Part shown: positions 939-16,837 of the stretch, piece after piece
Numbering within the stretch: position 1 is the stretch's first letter
Layout: each line of letters starts with the position of its first letter
Assembly: GCA_001192655.1 (NCBI GenBank)
Contig: BBVC01000042.1
Span: forward strand, 1 to 20,586
Reading direction: 5' to 3'
Origin: Caedimonas varicaedens
Lineage (GTDB): Bacteria; Pseudomonadota; Alphaproteobacteria; Caedimonadales; Caedimonadaceae
Length of the DNA: 20,586 nt
Notes under the pieces: generated by a model
Database searches by the model: none
Seen by the model: the letters and a program-made list of their open reading frames with translations, nothing else
Told to the model about the DNA's origin: nothing
Made by a program: the position numbers and the translations under genes

Positions 939-966
939 AAAAAAGCCTCTAAAAGAGGCTTTTTTA
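939..966. terminator. Bidirectional Rho-independent terminator
   Basis: Perfect 8-bp stem AAGCCTCT (943-950) / AGAGGCTT (954-961) with an AAA loop. It is flanked by an A-run (939-944) and a T-run (960-965), so it reads as hairpin plus U-tract on either strand. It lies 11 nt after the protease stop codon. Confidence 0.8.
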
Positions 967-3071: not shown

Positions 3072-5315
3072 ATGACAACCGATAAAAAAAATAATCCTGT
3101 ACCCCTAAATTCAGAATCCAGGAAAAATGAACAACCTGCCCCTGTCGAGAAAAGTTCGCTAAATTCTCAATGGCTTAAGGAAATATGGCAACAAAAAGCA
3201 TTTGATGATGATTCGCTCTTGTCTTGTCTTGAGATCTTGGCCAGCTTTCATGGGCGGCCGACATCTTCTGTCTCCTTGAAAGCAGGATTGCCACTCGATA
3301 AAAACCTTTTAACGCCTGAACTTTTTATACGTTCCGCCGCACGTATTGGACTCTCTTCAAGGGTGATTCATAAAAAACTTATCGACATCTCAACATTTAC
3401 CCTGCCCTGCGTACTCATCCTGGAAGGCGCTAAAGCCTGCTTGCTGGTTTCCCAACCTTCACGAGAAGATGTAGAAGTCATTTTCCCGGAAACAGGCCGC
3501 GGCTCAAAAGTCATGGGGCTGGAAGACATCAATCAGATATACAGTGGGTACGCTATTTTCTGTCAACCCCTTTATCGATATGATCAACGCTCTGCTGATA
3601 TTGAAATTGAGCACCCCAAAAACTGGTTTTGGGGAACTCTCGCAAAATCCTGGTCTATTTACATGCAAGTGGCCATCGCTGCTATCTTGGTAAATTTATT
3701 TGCGATTGTAAGCCCCCTGTTTGTGATGAATGTTTATGATCGCGTTGTTCCCAATAATGCAACAGATACCTTATGGGTTCTGGCAACGGGAGTTTTCATT
3801 GTTTTTGGGTTTGATTTACTGCTCAAGACACTGCGTGTTCACTATGTAGATTCGGCAGGCAGAAATGCAGATGTCATTCTGGCAAGCCGAATTTTTGAGC
3901 AAGTCCTTGGAATGCGACTTGCATTCCGTCCCGAATCCTCAGGGAGTTTTGCAAACCAGCTGCGTGAATTCGAAACCCTGCGCGAATTTTTTTCTTCTGC
4001 AACACTCGTTGCCTTTATCGATTTGCCTTTTGTATTTCTTTTTATTCTTCTGATTGGATATATCGGCGGAGCCATTGCCTGGGTACCTCTCTTAGCCGTC
4101 CCTATTATCATGGTCGTTACTTTTATTTTACAGGGACCCTTACGCGGCTGGGTTAACAAATCTTTTAGAGAGGGCGCTCAAAAACATGCTCTTTTAGTAG
4201 AAGCTATCTATGGGCTGGAAACAATAAAAAGTTTCGGCGCAGAAGGACGGATGCAACGTAATTGGGAGAATTTTGTATCCCAAGCAGCGTCTTCTTCCAA
4301 CGCGGTACGTTTTTTGGGAGCGCTTGCTTTAAATTTTGCAGGCTTTATTCAACAGCTTTCCTATATACTTGTCGTTGTTGCGGGCGTTTATTTGATTGCC
4401 AAAGGTGACCTGTCTACGGGGGGGCTGATTGCATGTTCCATTCTCTCAGCGCGGGCTATGGCCCCTCTTAGTCAGGTTGTCTCCCTGTTATCCAAATTAA
4501 ATCAATCACGCACATCTCTTGAAGCGCTCAATAAAATTATCAAGCTCCCCACAGAAAGAGGAGAACTCCAAAGTTATCTCCATCGCCCTAATCTTCATGG
4601 TGATATTGAATTTAAGGATGTCAACTTTTCTTACCCAAACCAAAAGACAAAAGCTTTGGAAGGACTCAGTTTATCCATAAAATCAGGTGAAAAAATTGGC
4701 GTTGTCGGTCGCATTGGTTCAGGCAAGTCAACCCTTGAGAAGCTTATTCTCAACCTTTATACTGCCGATGAGGGGTCTATTCAAATCGATAGCACAGACA
4801 TTCGTCAAATTGATCCTGCAGACCTTCGTAAAAATATCGGCTATGTTCCGCAGGATATCTACCTCTTTCATGGTTCGGTACGAGATAATATAACATTGGG
4901 ATCAGATCATGTAACTGATGAAGAAATCCTGAAAGCTGCTATTTTATCAGGTGTGCATGACTTTGTTCGTCATCATCCCATGGGGTATGATATGCCAATC
5001 AGTGAAGGAGGGGCTTCCTTATCAGGCGGTCAGCGTCAGACTATTGCCGTTGCGCGTGCGCTTATCAGAAATCCTTCTATTTTGTTGCTTGATGAACCTT
5101 CTGCCATGATGGATCATACTTCAGAAGCACAAATCATTCAGAGATTGCGTTCCATTATTTCTGATAAAACGGTGATTATTATTTCTCATCGAATACCCCT
5201 GCTTGATCTAACTGACAGAATTATCGTGATGGATAATGGTCGAGTCATAGCAGATGGCCCCAAGTCTGAAGTGCTGAAGGCTCTTTCCAATTCACAAATT
5301 CGCAGTGCAGGGTAG
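3072..5315 (+). CDS. Type I secretion ABC transporter (permease/ATPase) with an N-terminal degenerate C39-like domain (HlyB/LssB type)
   Basis: 747 aa. The N-terminal 'DDDSLLSCLEILASFHG' aligns with E. coli HlyB 'DYGLYALEILAQYHN'. A six-TM-type hydrophobic core follows. Walker A 'GRIGSGKST', ABC signature 'LSGGQRQ', Walker B 'ILLLDEPSAMMD' and H-loop 'IIISHR' are all present. Confidence 0.92.
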   Translation: MTTDKKNNPVPLNSESRKNEQPAPVEKSSLNSQWLKEIWQQKAFDDDSLLSCLEILASFHGRPTSSVSLKAGLPLDKNLLTPELFIRSAARIGLSSRVIHKKLIDISTFTLPCVLILEGAKACLLVSQPSREDVEVIFPETGRGSKVMGLEDINQIYSGYAIFCQPLYRYDQRSADIEIEHPKNWFWGTLAKSWSIYMQVAIAAILVNLFAIVSPLFVMNVYDRVVPNNATDTLWVLATGVFIVFGFDLLLKTLRVHYVDSAGRNADVILASRIFEQVLGMRLAFRPESSGSFANQLREFETLREFFSSATLVAFIDLPFVFLFILLIGYIGGAIAWVPLLAVPIIMVVTFILQGPLRGWVNKSFREGAQKHALLVEAIYGLETIKSFGAEGRMQRNWENFVSQAASSSNAVRFLGALALNFAGFIQQLSYILVVVAGVYLIAKGDLSTGGLIACSILSARAMAPLSQVVSLLSKLNQSRTSLEALNKIIKLPTERGELQSYLHRPNLHGDIEFKDVNFSYPNQKTKALEGLSLSIKSGEKIGVVGRIGSGKSTLEKLILNLYTADEGSIQIDSTDIRQIDPADLRKNIGYVPQDIYLFHGSVRDNITLGSDHVTDEEILKAAILSGVHDFVRHHPMGYDMPISEGGASLSGGQRQTIAVARALIRNPSILLLDEPSAMMDHTSEAQIIQRLRSIISDKTVIIISHRIPLLDLTDRIIVMDNGRVIADGPKSEVLKALSNSQIRSAG

Positions 5316-5321
5316 GTTTAG

Positions 5322-6680
5322 ATGTTGTCTTATTTCAAAAAAATATTTCCCTCTGCTCAGGAACAAGAAAATACCGATTTTATGCCCCCTCATATTGCTG
5401 CCCACCATCGAAAACCTGAACGTAAGGTATCAATCCTTATGGGAGCAGTTATTCTATTCTGCATTACTTTTATTATTTGGGCGAACTGGGCTGAATTGGA
5501 TGAAATTGCGCGTGGGGAAGGCAAAATTATTCCTTCCAGCTCTGTACAGAAAATTAGCAATCTTGAAGGAGGAATTATTCAGGAACTTCTTGTTAAGGAA
5601 GGACAAATTGTTCAAAAAGATCAAATTTTAATGCGTATTGACCCAACGATTGCGGACGCGCACTTAAAAGAAGGTCGCGATAATTATTACCGATATCTTG
5701 CCGATGTAGAGCGATTGAAGTCCCTGACAGAGGGTCGAGACTTTATCGTTCCTGAAGAAGTCGAGAAGAATGCCCCTCAAGCTGCCGATGAAGCTCGTGA
5801 ACGCTATAAAGCACGCAAAGAGCGCTTAGCCAATGAAATTAATATCTCACAAAAAGAGCTGGATCAAAAAACTCAAGAATTGCATGAGCTTCAGGCACGG
5901 GAAATCGAAGCGGCAAAAGCCACAGATCTCTCTCAACAAGAGCTAGCCATTCAAAAACCTCTTGTTGAACGTGGATTAGGCGCCAAAATGGATCTTTTAA
6001 AAATTCAACGGGATTTAAATGACGCTCAGGGACGTCTTAATTCGACGAAAATTAATATCCAGAAAGCTGAAGCTGCGGTCAATCAGGCTTCTGAAAAACT
6101 CAAGCAAGTTCCTGTTATTTTCCAAAACGAAGATTATACGGAATTAAGAGAGGCTAGCAATAAACTGGCGCAGGCGCAGGGAAGTTTTACCTCACAGGAA
6201 AATATCGCGTCAAGAACAGAAATTCGCTCGCCTGTTAAGGGAATTGTAAAACAGATCCTGCTGACCACGATTGGAGGCATTATAAGACCAGGAGAAGACA
6301 TCATGGAAATTGTTCCCCTGGATGATAGTCTTCTGGTTGAGGTCAATATTAAACCCTCTGACATTGCTTTTCTGCATCCGGGTGAACCCGCTATGCTCAA
6401 AATCTCAGCCTATGATTATTCCATTTATGGAGGGCTCCACGCCGAGCTTGTGGACATCAGCCCGGATACTGTTGTCGATGAAAAAGACCAACGACATCAA
6501 AGTTATTATAAAGTCAAGCTCAGGACAACCAATCTGAAATTCACAAAATCCGGGGATGAAAAACCGCTGATTCCCGGTATGGTTGTGACGGCTGATATCA
6601 AGACGGGAAAAAAAACAGTCATGCACTATCTGTTAAAACCAATCATTAAAGCAAAAGACGAAGCCTTAACAGAACGATAA
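5322..6680 (+). CDS. HlyD-family type I secretion periplasmic adaptor (membrane fusion protein)
   Basis: 452 aa with a single N-terminal TM segment (VSILMGAVILFCITFIIWANWA) and a long coiled-coil middle (ELDQKTQELHELQAREIEAAK...). The C-terminal barrel motifs 'IRSPVKGIVKQI', 'GMVVTADIKTGKKTVMHYLLKPI' are typical of HlyD/LssD-type MFPs. The start codon lies 6 nt after the ABC stop. Confidence 0.9.
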   Translation: MLSYFKKIFPSAQEQENTDFMPPHIAAHHRKPERKVSILMGAVILFCITFIIWANWAELDEIARGEGKIIPSSSVQKISNLEGGIIQELLVKEGQIVQKDQILMRIDPTIADAHLKEGRDNYYRYLADVERLKSLTEGRDFIVPEEVEKNAPQAADEARERYKARKERLANEINISQKELDQKTQELHELQAREIEAAKATDLSQQELAIQKPLVERGLGAKMDLLKIQRDLNDAQGRLNSTKINIQKAEAAVNQASEKLKQVPVIFQNEDYTELREASNKLAQAQGSFTSQENIASRTEIRSPVKGIVKQILLTTIGGIIRPGEDIMEIVPLDDSLLVEVNIKPSDIAFLHPGEPAMLKISAYDYSIYGGLHAELVDISPDTVVDEKDQRHQSYYKVKLRTTNLKFTKSGDEKPLIPGMVVTADIKTGKKTVMHYLLKPIIKAKDEALTER

Positions 6681-6757
6681 GTATTCTTATATACAAAAGG
6701 CCAACAGCGTTTCTTCATTTCTGAAGTCTAGTCCATGAAAACCTTAGAGGAGGATTG

Positions 6758-7118
6758 TTCCTGTATTTGGCATTCTTAAGCATGGCGGTCATGTTTACAT
6801 CCACGTCATTGATGATACCAAAACATTTGATGCGATAGACTTGTTTATACAGACTGTTATCGTTCTTATAACACCTCAGATGTTTCTGAATTCAAACATT
6901 GTCGTATAACCCACTCAGAACTTTTCGCGCACAAACATAATCACATAAATGGTATTGAAAACTTCTGGAACCAAGCAAAACGTCACCTAAGAAAATACAA
7001 TGGTGTTCCCAAAAATAATTTTTATCTTTTCTTGAAAGAGTGGGAGTGGCGTTTTAGCATGAGGTCACCTAAAGAACTGCTTAAAGATCTTAAAACGAGT
7101 CGCAAAGAATATTATTAG
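6758..7118 (+). mobile_element. Decayed IS1595-family (ISXO2-like DDE) transposase remnant: N-terminally truncated with an internal frameshift
   Basis: Hand translation gives RRIVPVFGILKHGGHVYIHVIDDTKT from 6758. After a frame change near 6825-6835 it gives (C)DRLVYTDCYRSYNTSDVSEFKHCRITHSELFAHKHNHINGIENFWNQAKRHLRKYNGVPKNNFYLFLKEWEWRFSMRSPKELLKDLKTSRKEYY*, with the stop at 7116-7118. 'PVFGIL..GG.VY', 'YTD.YRSYN', 'HINGIENFW..AKR' and 'F.L.LKE.E.RF' are hallmark IS1595/ISXO2 motifs. There is no start codon, the N-terminal zinc-ribbon/HTH part is missing, and I see no terminal inverted repeats. Confidence 0.8.
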
Positions 7119-7154: not shown

Positions 7155-9095
7155 TTAGTTTCTTGCATGAGTAGTACCATGTTTTGATTCTAAAGAAGAT
7201 TTCAAGCCAATATTCCAAACTTCAAGACAGAAAAATAACCAAACCTTCTTTAAATCATCCACTGTTCCATTATTCAGTGATTTTAGAATAAAATCCTTTG
7301 TAACCCTACAATCAAAGTATTCATAAATAAATGCGCTGTCACTCATAAAAACATCATGACAAAAAGCTTTAAGATCTGTTTTTAACCATTGAATAAATGG
7401 CACCTCGAATCCCTTTTTAGGGGCGCTGGCAATGTTGGCTGGAAGATATCTCTTGGCAAGCTGTCTTAGTAGAACTTTGCTATTAAGTGCAGTAGCTTTC
7501 AAATTATCAGGAAGAGATAGCCCAAATCTTACAAGCCTTTTATCTAAGAATGGAGATCTTACCTCCAAAGAATTTGCCATAGAGGCAATGTCCATTTTTA
7601 CAAGTAAGTCATAAGGCAGCTCGCATATCAAATCCATAAACATGCTTTTTTCTAATATACTAGTGAAGCTCTTGGCATGTAAAAGCTCATTCAGAAACGC
7701 AGAATTTCCGTCTAGTCTGGCTCCAAATTTAAAAAAATCACTCCTATTTAAACCTTGACCACGTTGGTATAAGAAAGCATCTAGTTCATCAAGCGATAAT
7801 ACCTCTGCTGCTCTTTTGATGAAATCGAGTTTTGATCTATAGAGGTTATTACTAGGCAAAAATGATTTGATAACTTTTCCAGATAACATGAGATTGCGTT
7901 TTGAGAAATATTTTTTAACGCGATCTTGGGCTGCTGATAGCTGATAACGCCTGTAACCCCCAAAAACTTCATCACCTCCATCACCAACAAGTGCCACTTT
8001 TAAAAAAGTAGAGGTATGCTTTGAGACATAATAAGATGGAATGGCAGAGGCATCTGCAAAAGGTTCTCCATACATTGAAAGTATGTTCACTATATTGTCT
8101 TTTAGCTCACTCTGATTAATTATGATTTTGTTAATTTTAGATCCATACTTTTCTGCAACTTCACTTGCGAGATTGATTTCATCTAAATCTTCTGCATCAG
8201 AAGAAAAAGAAAAGGCTTGAATACCGGGTTTAAGTTGAGCAGCAAGAGCCATAATAAGTCCACTATCGATACCCCCGGAGAGAAACACACCAACGTCAAC
8301 ATCAGAACGAAGTCTTAATTTTATGGAATCTCTGAGTAAAACATCTAACTCTTCAAGAGCTTCATTTGAAGTGGTAATTTGTTTACTTTGAGGGATTTGC
8401 AGTTTATCATATGGTGTCAATGTGACGTTCAGGTTTCCATCCACACATAGAGAGTACCCTGGCGGAAGCTCTTTTATTTCCTCATATATAGTGTTTGTTC
8501 CCGGGATGTAACCAAGTGACATAAAATCAGAAATACTTTCTGATTTTATGTTTAATTTATTTAAGCCTATAAAGTGGGCAAGAGGTTTTATTTCAGATGA
8601 GAATGTAAATGCTCCATCTATTAATGAATAGTATAGTGGTTTTTCGCCAAGTAAGTCTCTGCTCAAAAATAGATTTTTTCTTTTATTATCCCATAATGCA
8701 AAAGCAAACATACCATTCAAGTGGATGGGAGTATCATTTCCTTTTTCTAGATATAGTTTATAAATAACTTCAGTATCACTTTTAGATAAGAAAGAATATT
8801 TACTCAAATAATCATTGTGAAGCTCAAGGTAATTATAGATTTCTCCATTATAAGTCAAAACATTCCCATATTTATTGTCGATAAATGGTTGATGACCTTT
8901 ATCAGTAACATCTATAATCGATAAGCGTCGATGACCAAGAATTAATCCATGTTCTGCAGATGACCATATGCCAGCTCCATCAGGTCCTCGATGAGCAAGT
9001 AAGTTTAAAGCGCAGTTGACTTTTTCTTTGTGCTCATGAATAGACTGATGGTTTCCTTTCAAGTATGGTGATAAAACTCCAAATATACCGCACAT
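7155..9095 (-). CDS. Asparagine synthase (glutamine-hydrolysing) family amidotransferase, glycan-locus type (WbpS/WbtH-like)
   Basis: 646 aa starting 'MCGIFGV', the Ntn glutaminase nucleophile Cys2. The PP-loop ATP-pyrophosphatase motif 'VFLSGGIDSGLI' is present. A GGAAGG Shine-Dalgarno lies upstream. It is the last gene of the minus-strand glycan operon. Confidence 0.88.
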   Translation of the reverse strand: MCGIFGVLSPYLKGNHQSIHEHKEKVNCALNLLAHRGPDGAGIWSSAEHGLILGHRRLSIIDVTDKGHQPFIDNKYGNVLTYNGEIYNYLELHNDYLSKYSFLSKSDTEVIYKLYLEKGNDTPIHLNGMFAFALWDNKRKNLFLSRDLLGEKPLYYSLIDGAFTFSSEIKPLAHFIGLNKLNIKSESISDFMSLGYIPGTNTIYEEIKELPPGYSLCVDGNLNVTLTPYDKLQIPQSKQITTSNEALEELDVLLRDSIKLRLRSDVDVGVFLSGGIDSGLIMALAAQLKPGIQAFSFSSDAEDLDEINLASEVAEKYGSKINKIIINQSELKDNIVNILSMYGEPFADASAIPSYYVSKHTSTFLKVALVGDGGDEVFGGYRRYQLSAAQDRVKKYFSKRNLMLSGKVIKSFLPSNNLYRSKLDFIKRAAEVLSLDELDAFLYQRGQGLNRSDFFKFGARLDGNSAFLNELLHAKSFTSILEKSMFMDLICELPYDLLVKMDIASMANSLEVRSPFLDKRLVRFGLSLPDNLKATALNSKVLLRQLAKRYLPANIASAPKKGFEVPFIQWLKTDLKAFCHDVFMSDSAFIYEYFDCRVTKDFILKSLNNGTVDDLKKVWLFFCLEVWNIGLKSSLESKHGTTHARN

Positions 9096-9148
9096 CTAAT
9101 AAAGCCTTCCAATCTAAAAAGGTGATACCTAAAATTTGATTCGGAGAG

Positions 9149-10411
9149 TTAATCTTTATGGATCAGCATGCGCTTCTCGATTTGCGATGCACGCATGCTT
9201 GCTCTTTTGAAGTGAAATTCACTGTAGGAATTAGCTGACACCAAAGAAGCTTTTCTATAATAGTTTAACGCCATATTTACCTTTCCCATTTCTTCATAGC
9301 ATCGACCCATAAAGTAAAGAACTGGTTTAGGTTTAAATGATTCAGACTTATCAATTTGAATCAAAGTTTGAAATTGTTCAAGTGCCTCCGAGTACTTTTT
9401 TGTTTTATATAAGGAAAAACCATAATAATATAGTGAATACAACTTATGACGGTAGTTTATAGATGATCTAGAGAGCCTTTTGTAAATCTTTTCCGCTTCA
9501 TTATAGTCTTCGATAAGCTGATGATGTCTGGCTTTTAAAAGATCATAAGATTCATTTAATTCTTTGTTCGTGAGATTATCCTGATTACTGAATAAGTTAA
9601 GAATGTTTACAGAAATAAATCCGGTAGTTTTTGGAGACTCAGTCTCAATATAGCTTGTCTCCTTGTAATGAGAAATTTTTCCATCCAAATAAGATAAGTA
9701 AAGCATTTGAATAAAACGTGCATACCATTTTCCTAAATAATTTAATAAAAATCTATTAATGTCTGCAATAAAAAAACAAATACCAGATGTTGGATCAACA
9801 TCTTCTCTAATTTCATATTTATATATGTAATCAACCGGTGTATATAACTTATTCATATAATTAAAAATTTCATTTTTGTCAGGGAATGATTTTTGTATGG
9901 ACAGTATTCCAAGTCTTTTTATTAAGAAATCTTTATCATTTTTTATGTGAGACAAGAGTTCTTCATATGTCAATAATTCACCCAGATCATTAACGTAAAC
10001 AATTCCTCCAAAAGGCTCAAAAACAATCCACTTTCCATCTATATTGATTTCAAGAAAGGCATGAAGCTTAGAATGTACTAATCTAGATTTGAGACCTGCT
10101 TTTTTTAGAAGTTTTGCAGCTATTAACGATTGAACACTGCACAAACCATTGCCATGCAGGAGTGCAGCCAACTCATTTGTGGGAGCATGTGAGCAGCCAT
10201 CTGAGGTTATATTCTCTGCTATATACTCAGCAAGGTTTTCAATGGTTTCTCTGTCATTCCGACCTTTTATATATTTATTTGCAATGCAAGTAAAAACAAC
10301 ATCTTCGTACACATAATTAAGGTATTTAACATAAATAAATTTGAACAAAATTATAAAAGACAATAAAAGTGGAATAAGAAGATAGATTTTTTTCATTTTA
10401 AGTAATCTCAT
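9149..10411 (-). CDS. Membrane-anchored transglutaminase-like cysteine-protease-fold protein with C-terminal TPR repeats (function unknown)
   Basis: 420 aa with an N-terminal signal-anchor helix (KKIYLLIPLLLSFIILFKFIYV). The core 'GNGLCSVQSLIAAKLLKKAGLKSRLVHSKLHAFLEINIDGKWIVFEPFGG' fits the transglutaminase-like template C..(A/S)..L...LR..G(I/L).(A/S)R.V......HAW.E......W...DP. Putative catalytic residues are Cys91 (10139-10141), His117 (10061-10063) and Glu132 (10016-10018). The C-terminal ~100 aa have TPR-like periodicity (YNEAEKIYKRL..., YSEALEQFQTLIQID, GRCYEEMGKVNMALNYYRKA). The start is either 10411 or the ATG at 10396, which is 1 nt after the GT4 stop. Confidence 0.6.
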   Translation of the reverse strand: MRLLKMKKIYLLIPLLLSFIILFKFIYVKYLNYVYEDVVFTCIANKYIKGRNDRETIENLAEYIAENITSDGCSHAPTNELAALLHGNGLCSVQSLIAAKLLKKAGLKSRLVHSKLHAFLEINIDGKWIVFEPFGGIVYVNDLGELLTYEELLSHIKNDKDFLIKRLGILSIQKSFPDKNEIFNYMNKLYTPVDYIYKYEIREDVDPTSGICFFIADINRFLLNYLGKWYARFIQMLYLSYLDGKISHYKETSYIETESPKTTGFISVNILNLFSNQDNLTNKELNESYDLLKARHHQLIEDYNEAEKIYKRLSRSSINYRHKLYSLYYYGFSLYKTKKYSEALEQFQTLIQIDKSESFKPKPVLYFMGRCYEEMGKVNMALNYYRKASLVSANSYSEFHFKRASMRASQIEKRMLIHKD

Positions 10412-11555
10412 ATAATTTTTTTTGTATATCTCTTATGAGGTTCTTATGAGAAAATTTCTTTTCAGCGAGAATCCTTGATTTTTGACCAAAAATTTCTCTT
10501 TTTTTATCGTCCAAAGCTAAATCTGAAATTGCATTGGCAAGCGCATCTGCATCACCAGGGGGAACAAGGTAACCATTCACACCAGACTCTACAACTTCCC
10601 TACAACCAATAACATTTGTCGTAACAACAGGTTTTGAAAATGCTAAAGCTTCGATAAGACTTCTTGGAACTCCTTCTCTAACTTTAGAGGGGAGAACTAC
10701 AATCGATGCCATTTTAAAAAAAGTTTTAATGTTAGAATGAAAATCAGACTCCCAAATTAAATTGCTGGGTATTAATTTTTTCATTTCTTCCACATCAACA
10801 CTGTCATATGTTCCCTCATCTAGAGGGGAAACCATTAAAAACCGCCATCCTTTTAAGTTCTTACATTTCCTGGAAGCCTCAATGAACTCTAGCAGCCCTT
10901 TAGTGAGAATCAACCGTGCTGTTACCATGAGAACAATTTTTTCTCCAGGGATTATTCCCAACTTATTAGTTATAAATTTTATCTTTTCTTCAGTGACATT
11001 ATCTTCCTGAAACTCTTCTAAATTTATTCCACTCCCATAAAGAAGGACAGTTTTATCCGGACTAACAAGCCCCTTCGAAACAAAATCTGCCATATCATCA
11101 GGATTTTGAAACCATACTTTAGTGTTTAATCTTAGAGACAGCCTATAGAGAAAAGATACAATAGGTGTCAGTATTTTTTTCTTGAAAGATGTTGTTTCTT
11201 GAAAGATATATCCAAGCCCGGAAATCAAACTCACTATCTTTGGTACGCCACACAAATAAGCTGCCAAACCACCATAAATGTTAGGTTTGATCGTTATATT
11301 ATGAACAATATCATATTTATTTCTTTTGAGAAAAAAAACTAATCTAAGGAAAAGTAATAAATCCTGCAAAGGAGAGATAAATCTAGAAAACTGAATGGTA
11401 TGAACCTTACATCCGAGAGCCATGATTTGAGAAACATAATCTCCTGGCGGAACAATAACAGTAATGTCATAACCCCTACTAATAAGTCCAGAAATCAGAT
11501 CTTTTCTGAAATGAAACATTGAAAACGCTTCATTTCCAATCAGCAAAATTTTCAT
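10398..11555 (-). CDS. GT4-family (GT-B fold, retaining) glycosyltransferase
   Basis: 385 aa. The N-terminal 'MKILLIGNEA' resembles Glyco_trans_4. The C-terminal E-x7-E region is 'EGVPRSLIEALAFSKPVVTTNVIGCREVVESGVNGYLVPPGD'. Its ATG directly abuts the upstream dehydrogenase stop (TAAATG), and its 3' end overlaps the next ORF. Confidence 0.88.
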   Translation of the reverse strand: MKILLIGNEAFSMFHFRKDLISGLISRGYDITVIVPPGDYVSQIMALGCKVHTIQFSRFISPLQDLLLFLRLVFFLKRNKYDIVHNITIKPNIYGGLAAYLCGVPKIVSLISGLGYIFQETTSFKKKILTPIVSFLYRLSLRLNTKVWFQNPDDMADFVSKGLVSPDKTVLLYGSGINLEEFQEDNVTEEKIKFITNKLGIIPGEKIVLMVTARLILTKGLLEFIEASRKCKNLKGWRFLMVSPLDEGTYDSVDVEEMKKLIPSNLIWESDFHSNIKTFFKMASIVVLPSKVREGVPRSLIEALAFSKPVVTTNVIGCREVVESGVNGYLVPPGDADALANAISDLALDDKKREIFGQKSRILAEKKFSHKNLIRDIQKKLYEIT

Positions 11556-12851
11556 TTATAACCTAACATACTCTATATTTTCGTTCATAAACGAGCTTTT
11601 ATTAAACATCCCTTTAACGTCAAAAATTAGAGAACCACCACCTTTTAAGGATTTTGTAAAATAATTCGGACCAAGTTCCCTATAGTAGTCGTGGCAAACC
11701 GCAACAATAGCAACATCCAAATCGACCATTTCATCAATCTTGTTCATTGAACGGCCGTATTCTTCCGCAACTGAATCATCATAAACTAATGGATCATGGA
11801 TCAATGTATTTATATTTAATGACTGAAAGAATTTATATATGTCTTCGACTTTACTATTTCTAATATCAGGACAGTTTTCTTTAAAACCAAGACCAAATAT
11901 CCCAATATTTAATGAAAAAAAGTTTTTCTTTTTTTCTATTAACTTTTTAATAATAATTTCACCAATATGAGTACCCATACTATCATTAGTCTCGCGGCCA
12001 CAAAGAATCACGTGGGGCTTCACCCCTAAGAGTGTGGCTTTATAAGTAAGATAATATGGATCTATTCCGATACAATGGCCACCTACAAGACCTGGGATAA
12101 AATTCAGAAAATTCCATTTTGTACTTGCGGCTTCCAGAACTTCAAGAGTATCTATCCCCATTTTTTCGAAAATGATAGATAATTCATTTACGAAGGCTAT
12201 ATTGATATCTCTTTGTGAATTTTCAATAACTTTTGCCGCTTCTGCAACCTTTATAGAAGAGGCTTTATGTATGCCCGCCTCAACTACCGTTGAATACACA
12301 TTGGAAAGAACCTCAAGGGACTTATCTGTTTGAGCAGATACTATTTTTTTGATTGTCTTCAGTGTGTGCTTTTTATCTCCAGGATTAATCCTTTCTGGAG
12401 AGTAGCCTACAAAGAAATCCTTGCCCGCTACCAAATGTGACTTGCTTTCAAGTATTGGGATGCAATAATCTTCAGTTACACCAGGATAAACCGTAGATTC
12501 ATAAACGACTATATCGTTTTCACTAAGAAGCTCACCCACAATGGTTGATGCCGACTCTAAAAATCCCAAATCTGGATTATTTGTACGGTCAAGTGGAGTA
12601 GGAACAGTAACTATATAAAAGTTAACATCCTTTAATTCTTTGGCACTATTTGTATATTTGAGAGATGATTTTTGAAGATCAGCCTGAGAAATTTCATGGG
12701 TTCTATCATGCCCATTTTTTAGTTCTGTAATACGCCTTTCATTTAAATCAAATCCAATCACTGGAAAATGTTCTGATAAAGCATGGGCTAATGGTAATCC
12801 AACATAGCCTAATCCAATAACGCCTATTCTTATTTGGGTATTATCTATCAT
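11556..12851 (-). CDS. Nucleotide-sugar 6-dehydrogenase, TviB/WbpO/Cap5O-like (UDP-N-acetylhexosamine dehydrogenase type)
   Basis: 431 aa. The N-terminal Rossmann motif 'IGVIGLGYVGLPLAHAL...VIGFDLNERRITELKNGHD' closely resembles Vi-antigen TviB 'IAIIGLGYVGLPLA...VVGFDVNKKRILELKNGVD' (from memory). The catalytic Cys motif is 'GGHCIGIDPYYL'. The UDPG_MGDP_dh C-terminal region is present. Confidence 0.88.
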   Translation of the reverse strand: MIDNTQIRIGVIGLGYVGLPLAHALSEHFPVIGFDLNERRITELKNGHDRTHEISQADLQKSSLKYTNSAKELKDVNFYIVTVPTPLDRTNNPDLGFLESASTIVGELLSENDIVVYESTVYPGVTEDYCIPILESKSHLVAGKDFFVGYSPERINPGDKKHTLKTIKKIVSAQTDKSLEVLSNVYSTVVEAGIHKASSIKVAEAAKVIENSQRDINIAFVNELSIIFEKMGIDTLEVLEAASTKWNFLNFIPGLVGGHCIGIDPYYLTYKATLLGVKPHVILCGRETNDSMGTHIGEIIIKKLIEKKKNFFSLNIGIFGLGFKENCPDIRNSKVEDIYKFFQSLNINTLIHDPLVYDDSVAEEYGRSMNKIDEMVDLDVAIVAVCHDYYRELGPNYFTKSLKGGGSLIFDVKGMFNKSSFMNENIEYVRL

Positions 12852-12865
12852 GACTGTAAACCTTA

Positions 12866-13490
12866 TTAACTTAATAAATATTTTGCTCTATCAATAACTT
12901 GTGCAACTGAAGGATAGTAACCCTTCTCCAGGAAAGATGATGTGGGCACAAGGCAATCTAGCAGTGTAACTCTCTGTGGTTTTGACTTCAATAATGAGAG
13001 ATCTAACCTTTCAACAACGGAGGCGATAACTTCTCCTGCCATACCACATAGTTTCCATCCGCCATTAAGACATAGCAAACGTCCTGTACTTAATGATAAC
13101 TACCTCTACTGAAATTCCATCTTGAGTAAGAGCTTTTGCAGCTTTTTCAAAAAAAGTAGAATATCCCAATGGGAACATCATTTTCATGTGACAAAAATTA
13201 AGTTTTAACAGCCTCTGTAGATGTACCCCCAAAGAACTTGGGTTCAAATCGATAGTCTTTGCCCACACATAGCGCTGAACCATACGATCGATTTGCTTTT
13301 GAGAGATATCATCTCCTGCAAGTTCTGTGGCTTGAGAATAATTTGTTTCAACTTAACCTCAACGATGTGTCACAACTTCAAAGGCGGCAAGAGGAGGAAC
13401 CAATTCTCCCCATACGAGCCTCCGTACGAGATCCTCAATCTGCGCCCATTTATAAGAGAACAACAACGTTTTGTAAAGTTTTTTCTTTAG
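12866..13490 (-). pseudogene. Decayed paralogue of the ThDP-dependent E1 alpha/beta pair: alpha C-terminal remnant fused to beta C-terminal remnant, with frameshifts and a large internal deletion
   Basis: ORF 12866-13078 (…NGGWKLCGMAGEVIASVVERLDLSLLKSKPQRVTLLDCLVPTSSFLEKGYYP…) aligns ungapped with the C-terminus of the intact E1 beta at 17862-18917 (…DGSWKNCGIAGEVIASVVERIDPRILKSKPSRITLPDSPAPTSKVLEDIYYP…). I count 34 of 70 identical residues. ORF 13065-13283 contains 'GYSTFFEKAAKALTQDGISVEVVII', matching beta 'GSSYSSYLAMQAAKELEKQRIFAEVIDL'. Hand translation of the minus strand at 13284-13490 gives 'SYKWAQIEDLVRRL' and 'LAGDDISQKQIDRM'. These resemble E1 alpha C-terminal 'IKAWKKRDPVQRL' and 'LEKNEIMSQKEFQQHL'. 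The pieces lie in different frames and are interrupted by stops, and roughly the first 200 aa of beta are absent. Confidence 0.7.
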
Positions 13491-13514
13491 AAATGACCGC
13501 AACATTGTCTCAAT

Positions 13515-13781
13515 CTACTTTCTCTCCTGAATGTCCTGTCTCATTTTATGTTGATGAGTGATGATTTTGTGTTTCAGGATTTCAATTTCAAGCTGCCACA
13601 GTAAAACCAGTAGAAAAAAAGCCGCGTAGGCGCCTGTCATCAAAAAAAGCGGAAGTATCATACTTTCATGAACAGCACTTCCCCCGACACGTAGAAAGCT
13701 GGCAGGCTGATGAAGCGTCGTCCACCAGGTCACAGACCATTTGATTACGGGAAGATTCAAAGCGCCAATCATCACCGTTTA
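13515..13781 (-). pseudogene. ccmC: 3' fragment of the heme exporter / cytochrome c maturation gene ccmC
   Basis: 'IGALNLPVIKWSVTWWTTLHQPASF' matches the conserved CcmC 'VG..N.PII.FSVEWWNTLHQ' motif, and is followed by the final TM helix. Only ~88 C-terminal codons are present, whereas full-length CcmC is about 240-260 aa. An in-frame stop lies immediately upstream (~13782-13784), and no CcmC-like sequence is visible further upstream. Confidence 0.7.
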
Positions 13782-14151
13782 CGACGGGGTTCATATTTTT
13801 CTTGAGACAGTGCGTAATTCACCAGTCTATAAATATTCTTGTGCAATCCTTGGATCTGCATAAAAAGACTTTCCTGAGTTGATGTTGAACTACCCTATCT
13901 TTAAGGTCTTCTATGGTTTCTTTGAATACTGGAAAACCTGTCTCTCATCTCTCTGAATTGAGACAACCTATGCATGAAAATTTTCTTAAAAAATTTAATA
14001 GACTTTACGAATCTTTCGAATAAGTTCAGAGAAATCAAGGTTATTCAGATTGCAGAAGAGCTCGTGCAAAACCGTATTTTCATCTTGCTTATTTTAAAAA
14101 ATACATATATGGTCTGTCCTAGTGATTTTTATGGCATTAACAATATAAATT

Positions 14152-14895
14152 ATGAAAAGAATTTTAGATCTTATCTTTTCTATTCTGGGCTTAATCATTC
14201 TTAGTCCGCTACTTTTGATCTGTATGTCCTTAATATGGCTACAAGATTATCATTCCCCTTTTTATTTAGGAGAAAGAGTTGGCAAGAATGGTAAGCGTTT
14301 TAAAATGATCAAATTAAGATCAATGGTTCAGGATGCAGATAAAACGGGTGTGGATTCAACCTCCGCAACAGATGTTAGGATTACGCCTTTAGGATCTTTT
14401 ATTCGGCGCTTCAAGTTAGATGAAATTCCCCAACTTTTGAATGTTATAAAAGGAGAAATGAGTCTGGTCGGGCCAAGGCCCAATGTAAGGCGTGAAGTTG
14501 ATTTATATACTGATGAAGAACTCAAACTTCTACGCGTAAATCCAGGCATTAGTGATATTGCTTCGATCGTTTTTTCTGATGAAGGAGAAATCCTCCAAAG
14601 TGAGGAGGATCCCGATATTTCCTATAATCAACTCATCCGTCCATGGAAAAGCAGATTAGGGCTATTTTATATTTCGCATCAAAATTTTTTGCTTGATTTA
14701 AAGGTTATTTGGATTACTGTCATTGCAATTGTTTCTCGAAAGGCTGCCTTAAAAAAAGTTGTTTCTTTGTTGTCTAACCTGAATGCACCAGATGATTTAA
14801 AGAAAATAAGCCTGCGTGAAGAAAAATTAGTAGCCACAGCTCCTCCAGGGACAAATGTTATTGTAAAGTCTCGCAGCACTGTTTCGAAAGGCTAG
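14152..14895 (+). CDS. Small monotopic phosphoglycosyl transferase (bacterial sugar transferase, PglC/WbaP-C-terminal type): initiating undecaprenyl-phosphate sugar-1-phosphate transferase
   Basis: 247 aa. The N-terminal re-entrant helix is 'KRILDLIFSILGLIILSPLLLICMSLIWL'. 'FKMIKLRSMV' is present, and the catalytic region 'LDEIPQLLNVIKGEMSLVGPRP' carries the Asp-Glu dyad. It is the first gene of the plus-strand operon. Confidence 0.88.
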   Translation: MKRILDLIFSILGLIILSPLLLICMSLIWLQDYHSPFYLGERVGKNGKRFKMIKLRSMVQDADKTGVDSTSATDVRITPLGSFIRRFKLDEIPQLLNVIKGEMSLVGPRPNVRREVDLYTDEELKLLRVNPGISDIASIVFSDEGEILQSEEDPDISYNQLIRPWKSRLGLFYISHQNFLLDLKVIWITVIAIVSRKAALKKVVSLLSNLNAPDDLKKISLREEKLVATAPPGTNVIVKSRSTVSKG

Positions 14896-14908
14896 GAAAG
14901 CAACAAAC

Positions 14909-15679
14909 GTGGACTATAAAGATGTTACGGAATTATCTGGTGAAGAGATCTCCCAAGAGCAACTACAACGGATTTGTAATCGATATTATTGGGCGGGAAG
15001 CTATTGTCAAGGCAAAGACACACTTGAAGTTGCTTGTGGAACGGGGCCAGGGCTAGGATATCTGTCACGAATTTCCCAGAGGCTTGTGGCAGGAGACATT
15101 TCTGAGGAAATTTTAAGTATTGCTCGTCTTCATTATGAAGAACGAGTTGATATTCAGCAGTTTGATGCTTCAAGTATGCCTTTTCCCAATCAATCTTTTG
15201 ATGTTGTGCTTATCTTTGAAGCTATTTATTATTTGCCAAATGTGGAACAATTTATGAAAGAGTGTAGGAGAATTCTGCGTCCTGCAGGTATCCTCTTAAT
15301 TGTGACAGCCAATAAGGATCTCTATGATTTTAATCCTAGTCCTTATAGCTATGGCTATTATGGCGTCCTCGAATTAGAGAGATTACTGAGCACCCATAAT
15401 TTCGAAGCGACTTTTTACGGTAGCACATCTGTAAAAACAACCTCATTTAAACAAAAGATTTTTAGACCAATGAAAAAAATAGCTTCTGCTCTCAATCTTA
15501 TTCCCCAAACAATGAAGAGAAAATCATGTCTTAAAAGACTTGTGTTTGGAAAATTAGTTCCTATGCCTTATGAAATTGATAGCTCAACAAGAAATTACGA
15601 GCCACCCGTGTCCCTAGTTTCAGACCATCCTGACAGGGTTCATAAAGTTATTTTTTGCGCAGCTCATATGAAAAACTGA
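14909..15679 (+). CDS. Class I SAM-dependent methyltransferase
   Basis: 256 aa with a GTG start. Motif I is 'LEVACGTGPGLGYL', post-I is 'LVAGDISEEIL', and later motifs are 'FDVVLIFEAIYYL' and 'LRPAGILLIV'. It starts 13 nt after the transferase stop. Confidence 0.8.
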   Translation: MDYKDVTELSGEEISQEQLQRICNRYYWAGSYCQGKDTLEVACGTGPGLGYLSRISQRLVAGDISEEILSIARLHYEERVDIQQFDASSMPFPNQSFDVVLIFEAIYYLPNVEQFMKECRRILRPAGILLIVTANKDLYDFNPSPYSYGYYGVLELERLLSTHNFEATFYGSTSVKTTSFKQKIFRPMKKIASALNLIPQTMKRKSCLKRLVFGKLVPMPYEIDSSTRNYEPPVSLVSDHPDRVHKVIFCAAHMKN

Positions 15680-15695
15680 TAGAAAGGATAAATTT

Positions 15696-16823
15696 ATGTC
15701 AAAGGCTCGAATAATTCCTTTTTTTAATTATCCAGCTTTGTTTTATCAGCAAGAAGAAAAATTTATTTCAATTTTTAAAGATGTTTGTTCAAGGGGTGCC
15801 TATATTCTGCAAAAAGATTTAGTAGAGTTTGAGGAGAATTTGAAAAAATTTCTTGATGTGAAATACGTCTTTGGTGTAGCTGATGGTACAAATGCAATTA
15901 TTTTAGGATTAAATGCCGCAGGGATCGGCCCTGGTGATGAAGTGATTGTTCCTTCACACACATATATAGCTTCAGCAGCAGCGGTTGCGCTTGTGGGTGC
16001 CAAACCCGTATTGTGTGATATTGGGGAAGACAATCTGATTGATCCTGCATCTGTCAAAGAAAAACTTACCCAAAAAACAAAAGCGATTATGCCTGTTCAT
16101 GTAAACGGACGGACGTGCAAAATGGATGATTTGCGGGATATTGCTCAACAGCATAATCTCATGATTGTTGAAGATGCTGCTCAGGCTCTGGGATCGAAAT
16201 ATAAGGGGAAAGGCGCAGGGACATTTGGGAAATTTGGAACTTATAGTTTTTACCCTGCCAAAGTTTTAGGATGTTTTGGTGATGGGGGAGCAATTGTAAC
16301 AAACGATGAAGAGATTGCCAGAAAGGTCTCCCTGTTAAGAGATCACGGGCGCGATGAAAGAGGTCGTGTTATTACGTGGGGAACTAATTCTCGTCTTGAT
16401 AATTTACAGGCTGCTATTTTGAATTTTAAATTACAGTCTTATAATGAAGATATTAAGAGACGTCGTGAAATCGCCAAAAAATATGACGAGTCATTAAAAA
16501 GCATAAAAGAACTTACGTTGCCTCCAAGCCCTAATGAAAACCAGGCTCATTTTGACATTTACCAAAACTATGAGTTAGCGGCCGATCGTCGCGATGACTT
16601 AAAAGCTTATTTGCAAGAAAAAGGGATCTCGACAATTATTCAATGGGCTGGTGTTCCTGTTCATAAATTTATAGAGTTGGGTTTTAATGAAATTTTGCCT
16701 AAAACAGAAAATTTCTTCGAAAGATGCCTGATGCTGCCTATGAATGTTTCTTTAAGTGATGACGATATCAATTATATTTGCGATTCTATACATTTTTTTT
16801 ATTCGCATAACAAAATTAATTAA
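15696..16823 (+). CDS. DegT/DnrJ/EryC1/StrS-family PLP-dependent sugar aminotransferase
   Basis: 375 aa with 'GVADGTNAIILGL', 'MIVEDAAQALGSKYKGK' and the PLP-lysine region 'YSFYPAKVLGCFGDGGAIVTND'. The length is typical of the family. Confidence 0.88.
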   Translation: MSKARIIPFFNYPALFYQQEEKFISIFKDVCSRGAYILQKDLVEFEENLKKFLDVKYVFGVADGTNAIILGLNAAGIGPGDEVIVPSHTYIASAAAVALVGAKPVLCDIGEDNLIDPASVKEKLTQKTKAIMPVHVNGRTCKMDDLRDIAQQHNLMIVEDAAQALGSKYKGKGAGTFGKFGTYSFYPAKVLGCFGDGGAIVTNDEEIARKVSLLRDHGRDERGRVITWGTNSRLDNLQAAILNFKLQSYNEDIKRRREIAKKYDESLKSIKELTLPPSPNENQAHFDIYQNYELAADRRDDLKAYLQEKGISTIIQWAGVPVHKFIELGFNEILPKTENFFERCLMLPMNVSLSDDDINYICDSIHFFYSHNKIN

Positions 16824-16837
16824 TTTTTAAAAAGTAA

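Follow-up and report, generated by a model that had tools for sequence, protein, structure and literature searches.

The gene analysed here lies at positions 9149–10411 on the minus strand of a 20,586-nt window (the whole stretch of DNA studied) from Caedimonas varicaedens, an obligate endosymbiont that lives in Paramecium. The open reading frame given in the original prediction is real: it starts with ATG and encodes a protein of 420 amino acids, or of 415 amino acids if M6 is the start, which is the form annotated at NCBI under the name "tetratricopeptide repeat protein". We refer to it as the TG-TPR protein. Its ATG (10409–10411) overlaps with the final 14 nt of a GT4 glycosyltransferase gene (10398–11555, minus strand; stop codon TAA at 10398–10400), confirming the claimed overlap between the two genes and, with it, translational coupling within a glycan operon. 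The alternative ATG of M6 (10394–10396) is located 1 nt past the GT4 stop; in a 56%-identical homologue (locus L001), M1 is kept and M6 is not. With 30.9%, the TG-TPR gene has the lowest GC content of the seven genes compared.

The first gene of the operon encodes a TviB/WbpO-like UDP-N-acetylhexosamine 6-dehydrogenase (11556–12851, minus strand), which reaches 434.5 bits with the TviB model, below its cut-off of 592, and 361.9 bits with the NDP-sugar dehydrogenase model, above the cut-off of 189.8. The GT4 and TG-TPR genes follow, and 53 nt further downstream, behind a GGAAGG sequence, starts the gene for a glutamine-dependent AsnB-like amidotransferase (7155–9095, minus strand) with a Cys2 nucleophile (MCGIFG). 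This protein matches GATase_7 (E = 1.8e-38). Its best NCBIfam match is TIGR03108 eps_aminotran_1 at 420.1 bits, below the cut-off of 816.9, whereas with the generic model asn_synth_AEB it exceeds the cut-off (415.1 bits vs. 267.1). Judging from its sequence, it is likely an amidotransferase for uronic acids of the WbpS/WbqG type, enzymes that form uronamides (PMC7468200).

A divergent glycan operon (14152–18917, plus strand) contains genes for a small Bac_transf protein, that is, a phosphoglycosyl transferase, a methyltransferase, a DegT aminotransferase and a TPP-dependent E1 alpha/beta-like pair. Bac_transf and DegT genes also flank homologues of the TG-TPR gene at other loci. Pseudogene debris is visible near the operon (12852–14151). 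An Rfam scan of the 20,586-nt window detected no RNA family, promoter-like sites were fewer in a promoter scan than in shuffled sequences, and no convincing terminator was found within the operon.

Membrane anchor and topology

Based on hydropathy and flanking charges, residues 9–27 (IYLLIPLLLSFIILFKFIY; 10331–10387, minus strand), which are preceded by MRLLKMKK, form a predicted signal-anchor helix. With a mean Kyte-Doolittle value of 2.36 and a KR-rich N-flank, it is the single hydrophobic helix of the protein, in agreement with the original prediction; a hydropathy scan found no second TM-like segment. In the AF2 model, a helix comprising residues 4–47 extends from the anchor into the catalytic domain. 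The predicted anchor helix seems to remain uncleaved.

Among 36 family members with an intact N-terminus, the N-flank of the TM helix carries two to six K/R and usually no acidic residue, and the C-flank is roughly neutral in most of them. Judged by the positive-inside rule alone, the TG-TPR protein is probably oriented N-in/C-out, so that its catalytic domain would face the periplasm. The presence of only one hydrophobic segment, together with the lack of a DUF3488 match, also disposes of an affiliation to the DUF3488/TgpA type that had been put forward for checking: TgpA-type proteins need a polytopic N-terminal DUF3488 domain ahead of the TG core.

A transglutaminase-like core with a conserved triad

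The transglutaminase-like core comprises residues 49–133 (envelope of Pfam PF01841; 10013–10267, minus strand) and reaches 25.0 bits with Transglut_core (cut-off 23). The same model is matched independently by 17 of 36 aligned family members at E ≤ 0.01 (best E 9.4e-14). When the family profile was compared with PDB sequences, it matched the putative cysteine protease 3ISR, which is transglutaminase-like, at E = 8.7e-7, and the alignment paired C, H and D of the two. Foldseek searches with the AF2 model of the whole protein (pLDDT 86.3, pTM 0.87) returned TPR proteins and menin only, and the transglutaminase fold became visible only after the N-domain had been modelled on its own. This model matched exclusively transglutaminase-fold structures in the PDB, with a probability of about 1.0, including PNGase (2f4m, 3esw, 1x3w), 3isr, 4xz7, 9crn and CPR-C4 as well as the TG-like domains of menin and XPC. 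Pfam, the comparison of the family profile with PDB sequences, and AlphaFold combined with Foldseek thus all support the papain-like transglutaminase core that had been predicted.

The triad C91-x25-H117-x14-E132 was found at the predicted positions and with the predicted spacing. The putative nucleophile Cys91 (codon TGC, 10139–10141, minus strand) is placed at the N-terminus of helix 91–104 in the AF2 secondary structure, and the other two residues on successive strands: His117 (CAT, 10061–10063, minus strand) at the start of strand 118–124 and Glu132 (GAG, 10016–10018, minus strand) at the end of strand 127–132. Glu indeed replaces the usual Asp, since the third residue is D in 97, E in six and G in one of 106 relatives. 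C91 and H117 are invariant in all 106 family members, down to ~18% identity, and 103 of them have an acidic residue (D or E) as the third member of the triad. From homology and secondary-structure placement, we infer a canonical geometry of the Cys-His-Glu triad. By its profile match, triad order and modelled core fold, the TG-TPR protein is a member of the superfamily PF01841.

The core fold and the triad spacing are as in the PF01841 proteins 3ISR, 4XZ7 and 3KD4, which differ in being soluble, in their accessory domains and in having no known association with glycan loci. The top Foldseek match of the N-domain is PNGase/Png1, a transglutaminase-fold enzyme that cleaves the amide bond next to a sugar. 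However, PNGase is cytosolic and eukaryotic and contains a zinc-binding Cys motif that is missing from the TG-TPR protein, in which there are just five Cys, none of them in a CxxC pair. The similarity is confined to the shared core, with a TM-score of about 0.26, and membership in the PNGase group was rejected.

Middle region and TPR module

The core is followed by a family-specific, helical middle region (residues 134–281; 9569–10012, minus strand) with a conserved FG..Y...Q motif (G227, Q235) and, in the Caedimonas clade, a beta-hairpin insertion at about residues 243–275. The C-terminal TPR region (residues 282–414; 9170–9568, minus strand) consists of seven helices, corresponding to about three TPRs and a cap. 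It matches TPR_2 with 36.6 bits and TPR_12 with 36.5 bits, scores that exceed the Pfam cut-offs, and Foldseek retrieved TPR structures such as YbgF (2xev, TMt 0.82) with the whole-protein model, so the array proposed from the sequence is present. The region opens with a family-wide A-R-(N-Y) helix, in which R295 is R in 84 and K in eight of 97 aligned sequences. Since the long TPR array is missing in one clade of the family, we regard it as an accessory element.

Several polysaccharide secretion systems are scaffolded by TPR arrays (PMC8760489). Menin, which combines a TG-like domain with TPRs, is among the structural matches, and the neighbours of the nucleophile have changed in the Caedimonas clade, from the family consensus WCDQQ to LCSVQ. 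The TG-like domain and the TPRs could therefore serve as a non-catalytic binding platform, acting as a scaffold or chaperone by analogy to menin, XPC/Rad4 and Cyk3. We consider this improbable in view of a Cys and a His that persist in every one of the 106 members, and an acidic third residue in nearly all, at identities below 20%. Moreover, one clade does without the TPR array, but not without the catalytic core. The inactive TG-like domains that we know of have lost their catalytic residues.

A rare family in surface-sugar gene clusters

A word-indexed protein search yielded three close homologues, and its profile version added one clade. Even an exhaustive HMMER search of 1.84 billion proteins returned only ~50 related clusters, which contain proteins of 300–430 amino acids with the layout of the TG-TPR protein. 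They derive from at least eight phylum-level lineages, including Omnitrophota, Planctomycetota, Acidobacteriota and Gemmatimonadota, but also Elusimicrobiota, Nitrospinota, Firmicutes and an alphaproteobacterial endosymbiont. A literature search combining transglutaminase-like proteins with TPR, glycosyltransferase, exopolysaccharide or O-antigen clusters retrieved nothing on this family, and a search on TglA of S. pyogenes, a structural match of our model, also came back empty. One Burkholderia paper naming transglutaminase-like genes concerns nitrogen regulation and was set aside as not relevant.

Homologue loci were gathered with a narrow alignment, which biases the sample towards members with the WCDQQ or ARNY motifs. 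Glycan genes are present at 21 of the ~25 independent loci in this sample (at least 2 kb of flank each), demonstrating that the genomic context of the Caedimonas gene recurs. Locus L002 has the same four-gene operon as the window; at L001, no GT4 gene precedes the homologue. In a marine clade (L031, L034, L040 and L049), the genes form a cassette of AsnB, GT4, Bac_transf, TG and DegT, which is the gene set of the window. The link to an amidotransferase recurs as well: at L006, the AsnB-like gene adjoins a homologue of only 22% identity with a 4-nt overlap, and at eight of the ~25 loci such a gene is located within 5 kb. AsnB-like genes occur widely in glycan loci in any case, and their presence near only eight of the ~25 homologues rules out a uronamide as the one substrate shared by the whole family. 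A Wzy_C gene abuts the TG homologue at L018 and L059, and a PMT_2 gene of the GT-C type at L012, L051 and L057; these neighbours, whose products are periplasm-facing enzymes, suggest that the family works at the periplasmic face. No conserved protein partner gene was seen across the homologue loci. A distant relative of the TG domain occurs in a fusion with a uronyl C5-epimerase domain. Taken together, sequence searches and gene neighbourhoods place the TG-TPR protein in a rare family without a name, whose genes turn up repeatedly in surface-sugar clusters of many bacterial phyla.

Comparison with known systems

A TG-like gene beside an AsnB-like gene is a hallmark of lasso clusters, and the adjacent genes of the window resemble the McjB/McjC pair in this respect. 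They could thus encode a TG-like leader peptidase (B) and an Asn-synthetase-like lactam cyclase (C) for a ribosomal peptide, and the AsnB-like protein does reach 234 bits with the lasso cyclase model, albeit below the cut-off of 525. However, this protein keeps Cys2 and a full glutamine amidotransferase domain, and its best match is the uronamide-forming eps_aminotran_1 family. The TG-TPR protein has no match to Transglut_core3 (PF13471) or RRE and is predicted to be membrane-anchored with an external domain. The 53-nt gap is too small for a precursor ORF, and glycan genes surround the gene both here and in its relatives. We regard a B/C identity as effectively refuted, with a negligible chance of being correct.

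The Vi locus is a close parallel in architecture. In it, the UDP-GlcNAc 6-dehydrogenase TviB, the GT4 protein TviE, which builds the HexNAc-uronic acid polymer, and TviD act on poly-GalNAcA; in the window, the genes for the TviB-like dehydrogenase (434.5 bits) and the GT4 protein lie directly upstream of the TG-TPR gene. TviD contains a Cys-His(-Asp) domain followed by TPRs that bind TviE, and is encoded together with TviB (PMC8760489). The two proteins hence share the combination of a Cys-His catalytic domain with TPRs beside genes for a 6-dehydrogenase and a GT4 enzyme. By this analogy, the TG-TPR protein might be a cytoplasm-facing acyltransferase that accepts acyl groups from acyl-CoA, carries them as thioesters and acylates the growing HexNAcA polymer, its TPRs docking onto the GT4 protein. 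Arylamine N-acetyltransferases, which have a transglutaminase-like fold, are loaded from acyl-CoA in this way. We nevertheless consider such a role very unlikely. The charges around the TM helix predict N-in/C-out in most members with an intact N-terminus, and the Wzy_C and GT-C neighbours likewise indicate the periplasmic face. TviD, by contrast, is a cytoplasmic protein of 831 amino acids with nine TPRs and C-terminal membrane association, and its catalytic domain was modelled with an SGNH fold (PMC8760489), not a transglutaminase-like one. There is no detected sequence similarity between the two proteins, and no TviD-type NCBIfam model was matched at E ≤ 0.1, so membership in the TviD group was rejected; the library presumably includes a TviD model.

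To our knowledge, the only studied analogue of the TG-TPR protein is HvyA. This periplasmic homologue of transglutaminase-like cysteine proteases is encoded in a capsule export locus of Caulobacter crescentus, where it blocks capsulation and requires its Cys, His and Asp residues (PMC4241560). HvyA resembles the TG-TPR protein in its transglutaminase/papain-like fold, its Cys-His-Asp triad and the location of its gene, which lies in a capsule locus; it is exported to the periplasm, where the catalytic domain of the TG-TPR protein is predicted to lie. It differs in being soluble, with a cleavable signal and without TPRs, whereas the TG-TPR protein has an anchor, a middle domain, TPRs and a Glu in the triad. 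By analogy, the latter could act as a periplasmic protease or protein transglutaminase on a protein of the glycan machinery or the envelope and thereby tune glycan production. All characterised transglutaminase-fold enzymes known to us work on peptide- or protein-linked amides and not on sugar carboxamides, which would favour such a protein target. TPR modules mostly bind proteins, as in the case of TviD and TviE (PMC8760489), and the neighbouring genes vary among loci, which is easier to reconcile with a generic machinery target than with one specific sugar. On the other hand, the TG-TPR protein is not a member of the BTLCP family, also raised in the original prediction, as its N-terminal 260 residues did not match PF06035 even at E ≤ 10. 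Neither is there a conserved protein partner gene across the loci, and the recurring set of AsnB, GT4, Bac_transf and DegT points to a specific glycan chemistry. We see an HvyA-like function as a serious possibility, but on the unlikely side.

Accelerated evolution of the Caedimonas gene

Between the TG-TPR gene and its counterpart at L002, 38 codon differences are nonsynonymous and 15 are synonymous, compared to 12 nonsynonymous and 36 synonymous ones in its three operon neighbours pooled (Fisher p 3.4e-6). The corresponding dN/dS is 0.63 for the TG-TPR gene and 0.05–0.12 for the neighbours. Relative to this close relative, the TG-TPR gene alone is strongly accelerated in amino-acid change. 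Within the gene, dN/dS is ~0.5 in the core and middle regions and 2.6 in the TPR part.

Fast evolution combined with the LCSVQ change beside the nucleophile could mean relaxed constraint. In the extreme case, the gene would be near loss in Caedimonas, with little or no current function, and the excess of nonsynonymous change, the nearby pseudogene debris (12852–14151) and the low GC content would all be compatible with such decay. We judge this to be a long shot: three lineages, down to 56% identity, have an uninterrupted ORF that keeps the triad and most motifs, dN/dS of the core and middle regions is below 1, and an excess weighted towards the TPR part is also expected under diversifying selection on an exposed surface. 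Fast evolution of one gene in a nearly frozen operon suggests a position at the host interface, with decay as the alternative.

A proposed role in surface-glycan modification

Starting from the observed fold, the conservation of the catalytic residues, the domain layout common to the family and the location in glycan loci, we propose that the TG-TPR protein is an extracytoplasmic Cys-thioester enzyme whose target is a part of the neighbouring glycan that bears an amide, or else a protein of the machinery assembling this glycan. We hold this reading to be plausible, if not quite probable; topology, catalysis, substrate and order of the steps are conditional throughout. The protein would be catalytically competent and a dedicated accessory of the surrounding surface-glycan pathway, tethered to the inner membrane by its one N-terminal helix, with the catalytic domain and the TPR module on the periplasmic side. 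The TviB/WbpO-like dehydrogenase would produce a UDP-HexNAc-uronic acid, the GT4 enzyme would then add the uronic acid, and the AsnB/WbpS-like enzyme, still in the cytoplasm, would spend ATP and glutamine on turning the carboxylate into a carboxamide. Once the lipid-linked glycan has been flipped, Cys91, activated by His117 and with Glu132 as the orienting residue, could attack an amide carbonyl, most likely one on the glycan, with the uronamide as the obvious candidate. Water may resolve the resulting thioester, which would amount to deamidation or trimming; resolution by an amine would instead amount to transamidation or cross-linking. The TPR module may bind either the polymer or a partner protein. 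Transglutaminases perform the same thioester chemistry on glutamine carboxamides, and no ATP is needed outside the cytoplasm.

A bolder version, which we think has only a slim chance of being true, would make the TG-TPR protein a periplasmic glycan transglutaminase that uses the AsnB-made uronic carboxamide as acyl donor and forms amide cross-links after export. Ammonia would be released and the sugar carbonyl passed to an amine, which could be a DegT-derived free amino sugar, a protein lysine or a lipid head-group, resulting in links within the surface glycan or between glycan and envelope. Such a reaction would amount to an ATP-independent, pre-activated ligation outside the cytoplasm, with a logic similar to D-Ala-D-Ala transpeptidation, and the cassette of AsnB, GT4, Bac_transf, TG and DegT would combine donor synthesis, acceptor synthesis and the cross-linker.

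Surface-glycan loci have been heavily mined, and nearly all enzymes assigned in them are cytoplasmic, or are polymerases, flippases or ligases. If a conserved cysteine enzyme outside the cytoplasm accompanies such loci, it would represent a missing modification or regulatory step after export. The context of the TG-TPR family, with its AsnB, GT4, Bac_transf and DegT genes, is repeatable and tighter than that of HvyA and hence offers a more tractable route to the action of the transglutaminase fold on capsules and O-antigens. If the substrate should indeed be a sugar carboxamide, this would be new enzymology.

A transglutaminase-like gene within a four-gene glycan operon

The TG-TPR gene of Caedimonas varicaedens, a Paramecium endosymbiont belonging to the Alphaproteobacteria, is an ORF of 420 amino acids on the minus strand (9149–10411). 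Its ATG overlaps the final 14 nt of the upstream GT4 glycosyltransferase gene, as the original prediction had suggested in describing a start that overlaps or abuts the GT4 stop. The NCBI entry on the 20,586-bp contig lists a 415-amino-acid "tetratricopeptide repeat protein" and uses an alternative ATG, M6, located 1 nt past the GT4 stop. In a 56%-identical homologue, M1 is kept while M6 is absent.

Together with its neighbors, the gene forms one unit of four minus-strand genes (12851 to 7155), within which a terminator scan revealed no convincing candidate. The order of transcription is a UDP-HexNAc 6-dehydrogenase (434.5 bits against the TviB model, below its equivalog cut-off, and 361.9 bits against the nucleotide-sugar dehydrogenase model, above the cut-off), the GT4 glycosyltransferase, TG-TPR, and a glutamine-dependent AsnB-like amidotransferase of 646 amino acids with Cys2 (7155–9095), which follows after a 53-nt spacer carrying the ribosome-binding motif GGAAGG. 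The first of these enzymes produces a uronic acid. Based on a model comparison, the AsnB-like protein is most similar to the eps_aminotran_1 family, which includes WbpS and WbqG, enzymes converting HexNAc-uronic acids to uronamides (PMC7468200).

The GC content of the operon (7155–12851) is 30.9–35.0%, lowest in the TG-TPR gene, compared with 42.5–43.4% for the adjacent type I secretion genes (3072–6680) and an E1-alpha-like gene (16838–17890); the operon may therefore have been acquired horizontally. The type I secretion set is complete within positions 2–6680, comprising a TolC-like outer membrane protein (1447–2922, minus strand), an ABC exporter with an N-terminal C39-peptidase-like domain (3072–5315), and a HlyD-type adaptor (5322–6680). 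Beside these genes, an ORF possibly cut by the window edge (2–928) has no Pfam match and carries a zinc-protease-like HETGH motif; its product could be a secreted cargo of the system.

Domain architecture and fold

The protein contains a single hydrophobic helix (residues 9–27) preceded by MRLLKMKK, and no further transmembrane-like segment was found along its length. Pfam Transglut_core matches residues 49–133 (25.0 bits, cut-off 23), C91, H117, and E132 show the predicted spacing, and several TPR models match residues 300–395. An AlphaFold2 model built from a 36-sequence family alignment is confident (pTM 0.87, pLDDT 86.3). In this model, an unbroken helix (4–47) joins the membrane segment to the domain, C91 forms the N-terminus of helix 91–104, H117 lies at the start of strand 118–124, and E132 at the end of the next strand (127–132), a modeled placement that corresponds to the canonical papain/transglutaminase arrangement. 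Residues 282–414 are modeled as seven helices, about three TPRs plus a cap, and the high pTM suggests that this module is packed in a fixed way against the catalytic domain.

A Foldseek search with the whole model retrieved TPR proteins. With the N-domain modeled on its own (pLDDT 77.8), only transglutaminase-fold structures were found (probability 0.93–1.00, with modest E-values of 2e-3 to 2.5e-2): mouse and yeast PNGase, 3ISR, 4XZ7, 9CRN, the transglutaminase-like domains of menin and XPC, CPR-C4, and 3KD4. An independent profile of 16 N-domains matched 3ISR with an E-value of 8.7e-7 and aligned the Cys, His, and Asp columns. Profile, triad, and fold thus agree that the protein belongs to the transglutaminase-like superfamily, and the signal anchor, catalytic core, and C-terminal TPR array of the original prediction are all borne out. 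Since the defining features of BTLCP/HvyA, TgpA (DUF3488), lasso-B, PNGase, and TviD proteins were looked for and found to be lacking, TG-TPR falls outside these groups, including the BTLCP and DUF3488 families that the prediction had named for checking.

A rare and unnamed family

A word-indexed search returned only the protein itself, one 91%-identical, and one 56%-identical protein. When residues 31–290 were run exhaustively by HMMER against 1.84 billion cluster representatives, only 53 clusters scored at E ≤ 1e-3. Most members are 350–415 amino acids long and have the whole layout in common: the signal anchor, G-x-x-W-C-D-Q-Q, H-T-x-x-E, W-x-x-x-D-P, an F-G..Y...Q motif, an A-R-N-Y-H-L helix, and the TPRs. 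Source records leave them unnamed or call them "TPR repeat protein", no dedicated Pfam family matches TG-TPR, and 17 of 36 members match Transglut_core by themselves.

We aligned 111 sequences drawn from proteins and loci, 106 of which are true family members. Without exception, these keep the catalytic Cys and His, even at less than 20% identity. The third position is acidic in 103 (Asp in 97, Glu in 6; Gly in 1), in agreement with the prediction that Glu replaces a usual Asp here; Glu occurs in the Caedimonas clade and in the protein P0013. This clade is a divergent branch, with WCDQQ changed to LCSVQ, YRE to YED, and DP to EP, and a beta-hairpin insertion at about residues 243–275. In a marine clade, the protein (300–330 amino acids) ends after about 1.5 TPRs, which makes the long TPR array an accessory feature and the A-R-N-Y helix part of the core. 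A purely non-catalytic scaffold, which the TPRs might bring to mind, is improbable in view of the invariant Cys and His.

Homologues recur in glycan loci

Locus scans covered GTDB species genomes (16 loci) and JGI metagenomes (41 loci), with six more from protein look-ups. The hosts, most of them uncultured, are Omnitrophota (6), Planctomycetia (3), Acidobacteriota, Gemmatimonadales, Elusimicrobia, Nitrospinae, and Syntrophomonadaceae. Clustering of the TG proteins at 60% identity gave 38 clusters, of which about 25 had flanks of 2 kb or more, and neighbors were assigned by phmmer against Pfam-annotated references. Recognizable glycan genes are present at 21 of these 25 loci, and the expected recurrence of homologues in glycan loci holds. 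We regard the family as rare and unnamed with a consistent glycan-locus context. The neighbors include SDR epimerase/dehydratases (directly beside the TG gene in six), GT2, GT4, and GT9 glycosyltransferases, MraY/WecA-type and Bac_transf initiating transferases, NDP-sugar enzymes, DegT aminotransferases, and B12-radical-SAM enzymes. In two lineages, the TG gene borders directly on a gene for a membrane enzyme that faces the periplasm: Wzy_C (L018/L059) in one, and a PMT_2 GT-C protein with TPRs (L012/L051/L057) in the other.

The suggested amidotransferase link recurs as well: an AsnB-like gene adjoins the TG gene in the window, in L002 (the same operon in a Logan assembly), and in L006, where 4 nt are shared with the gene of a 22%-identical homologue; at 8 of 25 loci it is found no more than 5 kb away. 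The marine clade carries a single cassette, AsnB-GT4-Bac_transf-TG-DegT, whose gene set is split across two divergent operons in the window. On the marine metagenome contigs (L031, L034, L040, L049), this compact cassette follows an SDR gene, and the TG gene of L049 is apparently split (6196–6450 and 6386–6799), possibly by a frameshift.

There are exceptions. In L017, FIST and PP2C genes flank the TG gene. In L001, which encodes the 56% homologue (Logan SRR30127145, 2.7 kb), it is preceded not by GT4 but by a small lipoprotein-like ORF of 97 amino acids (MKKLLAISSVFFILTGC...), together with a divergent 208-amino-acid ORF that has no Pfam match, so operon context is variable even inside the Caedimonas-like clade.

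L018/L059 is a 710-kb scaffold of an Omnitrophota MAG, on which the Wzy_C gene overlaps the TG gene start and DegT, methyltransferase, and E1-alpha/E1-beta-like genes are also found. The window has a comparable set of DegT, methyltransferase, and E1 pair (14909–18917), and the TPP-dependent E1 pair therefore seems to travel with such glycan loci. The window also encodes a polytopic membrane protein (19382–20518) with a sub-threshold Wzy_C match (27.9 versus 31.7 bits) and an internal TNTQP-TNTQP-TNTQ repeat, preceded by a hydrophobic ORF of 103 amino acids (19026–19337); this membrane protein is a possible polymerase or ligase for the locus. The 1.3-kb divergent "intergenic" region (12852–14151) contains, as judged by eye, apparent pseudogene fragments: ORFs 12866–13078 and 13065–13283 (both minus strand) look similar to the E1-beta-like protein (17862–18917) in its C-terminal half, and ORF 13515–13775 (minus strand) has a WWTTLHQ motif of the kind typical for CcmC.

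TG-TPR evolves faster than its operon partners

Compared with L002, the three operon neighbors show 98.6–99.8% protein identity and dN/dS of 0.045–0.12, whereas TG-TPR (9149–10411 versus L002 2887–4149) shows only 91.0% identity. Its codon differences are 38 nonsynonymous and 15 synonymous; the dehydrogenase, GT4, and AsnB genes taken together have 12 and 36 (Fisher p 3.4e-6, odds ratio 7.6). For TG-TPR as a whole dN/dS is 0.63, and for the TPR part, on few sites, 2.6. Relaxed constraint would explain these data, and diversifying selection acting on an exposed protein would do so equally. The ORF is intact and its triad unaltered. We consider it improbable that the gene is decaying in the endosymbiont. 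The spacer upstream of AsnB differs by an 18-nt indel (window 9096–9148, 53 nt; L002 4150–4184, 35 nt), with GGAAGG retained in both.

A possible role in glycan modification

The single anchor occurs family-wide; in most members with an intact N-terminus, its N-flank is rich in K and R and its C-flank close to neutral. From the fold, the invariant Cys and His, the acidic third residue, these anchor charges, and the glycan loci, we infer an active cysteine enzyme that would be sited at the outward-facing side of the inner membrane and serve the glycan pathway. The most economical hypothesis, which we put forward tentatively, is that it acts on an amide of the exported glycan, with a uronamide as the obvious candidate: the dehydrogenase would make a uronic acid, the WbpS/WbqG-like AsnB enzyme would turn the HexNAc-uronic acid into the uronamide, and Cys91 would form a thioester with the amide on the exported glycan, to be resolved by water or an amine. 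Such a mechanism is transglutaminase chemistry and does not need periplasmic ATP. The specific cross-linking version of this model is very doubtful. A secreted protein of 1020 amino acids (P0053) fuses a distant transglutaminase-like domain (GEGSC...HNTTEV...GKW...MDP) to a D-glucuronyl C5-epimerase C-terminal domain (E 1.2e-28), a weak hint linking this subtype to uronic-acid polymers.

It is possible, if rather unlikely, that the target is instead a protein of the glycan machinery, as in an HvyA-like enzyme. HvyA of Caulobacter crescentus is the sole studied transglutaminase-like protein within a capsule locus, and TG-TPR, which is outside the BTLCP/HvyA family, may work in a similar way. 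The operon also shows a notable architectural parallel to the Vi locus, which would suggest a cytoplasmic acyltransferase like TviD with TPRs docking onto GT4; the likeness may extend to architecture but not to family membership, and predicted topology and fold both contradict this reading, leaving it with little probability. We rejected a lasso-peptide B/C pair as extremely improbable: the partner gene encodes an intact glutamine amidotransferase, the surroundings are a glycan locus, and a lasso-specific domain or precursor is lacking.

A transglutaminase-like domain combined with TPRs is an ordinary enough identity. The conserved genomic association, probable extracytoplasmic action, and recurring amidotransferase link make the TG-TPR family a worthwhile and testable lead rather than a surprise.
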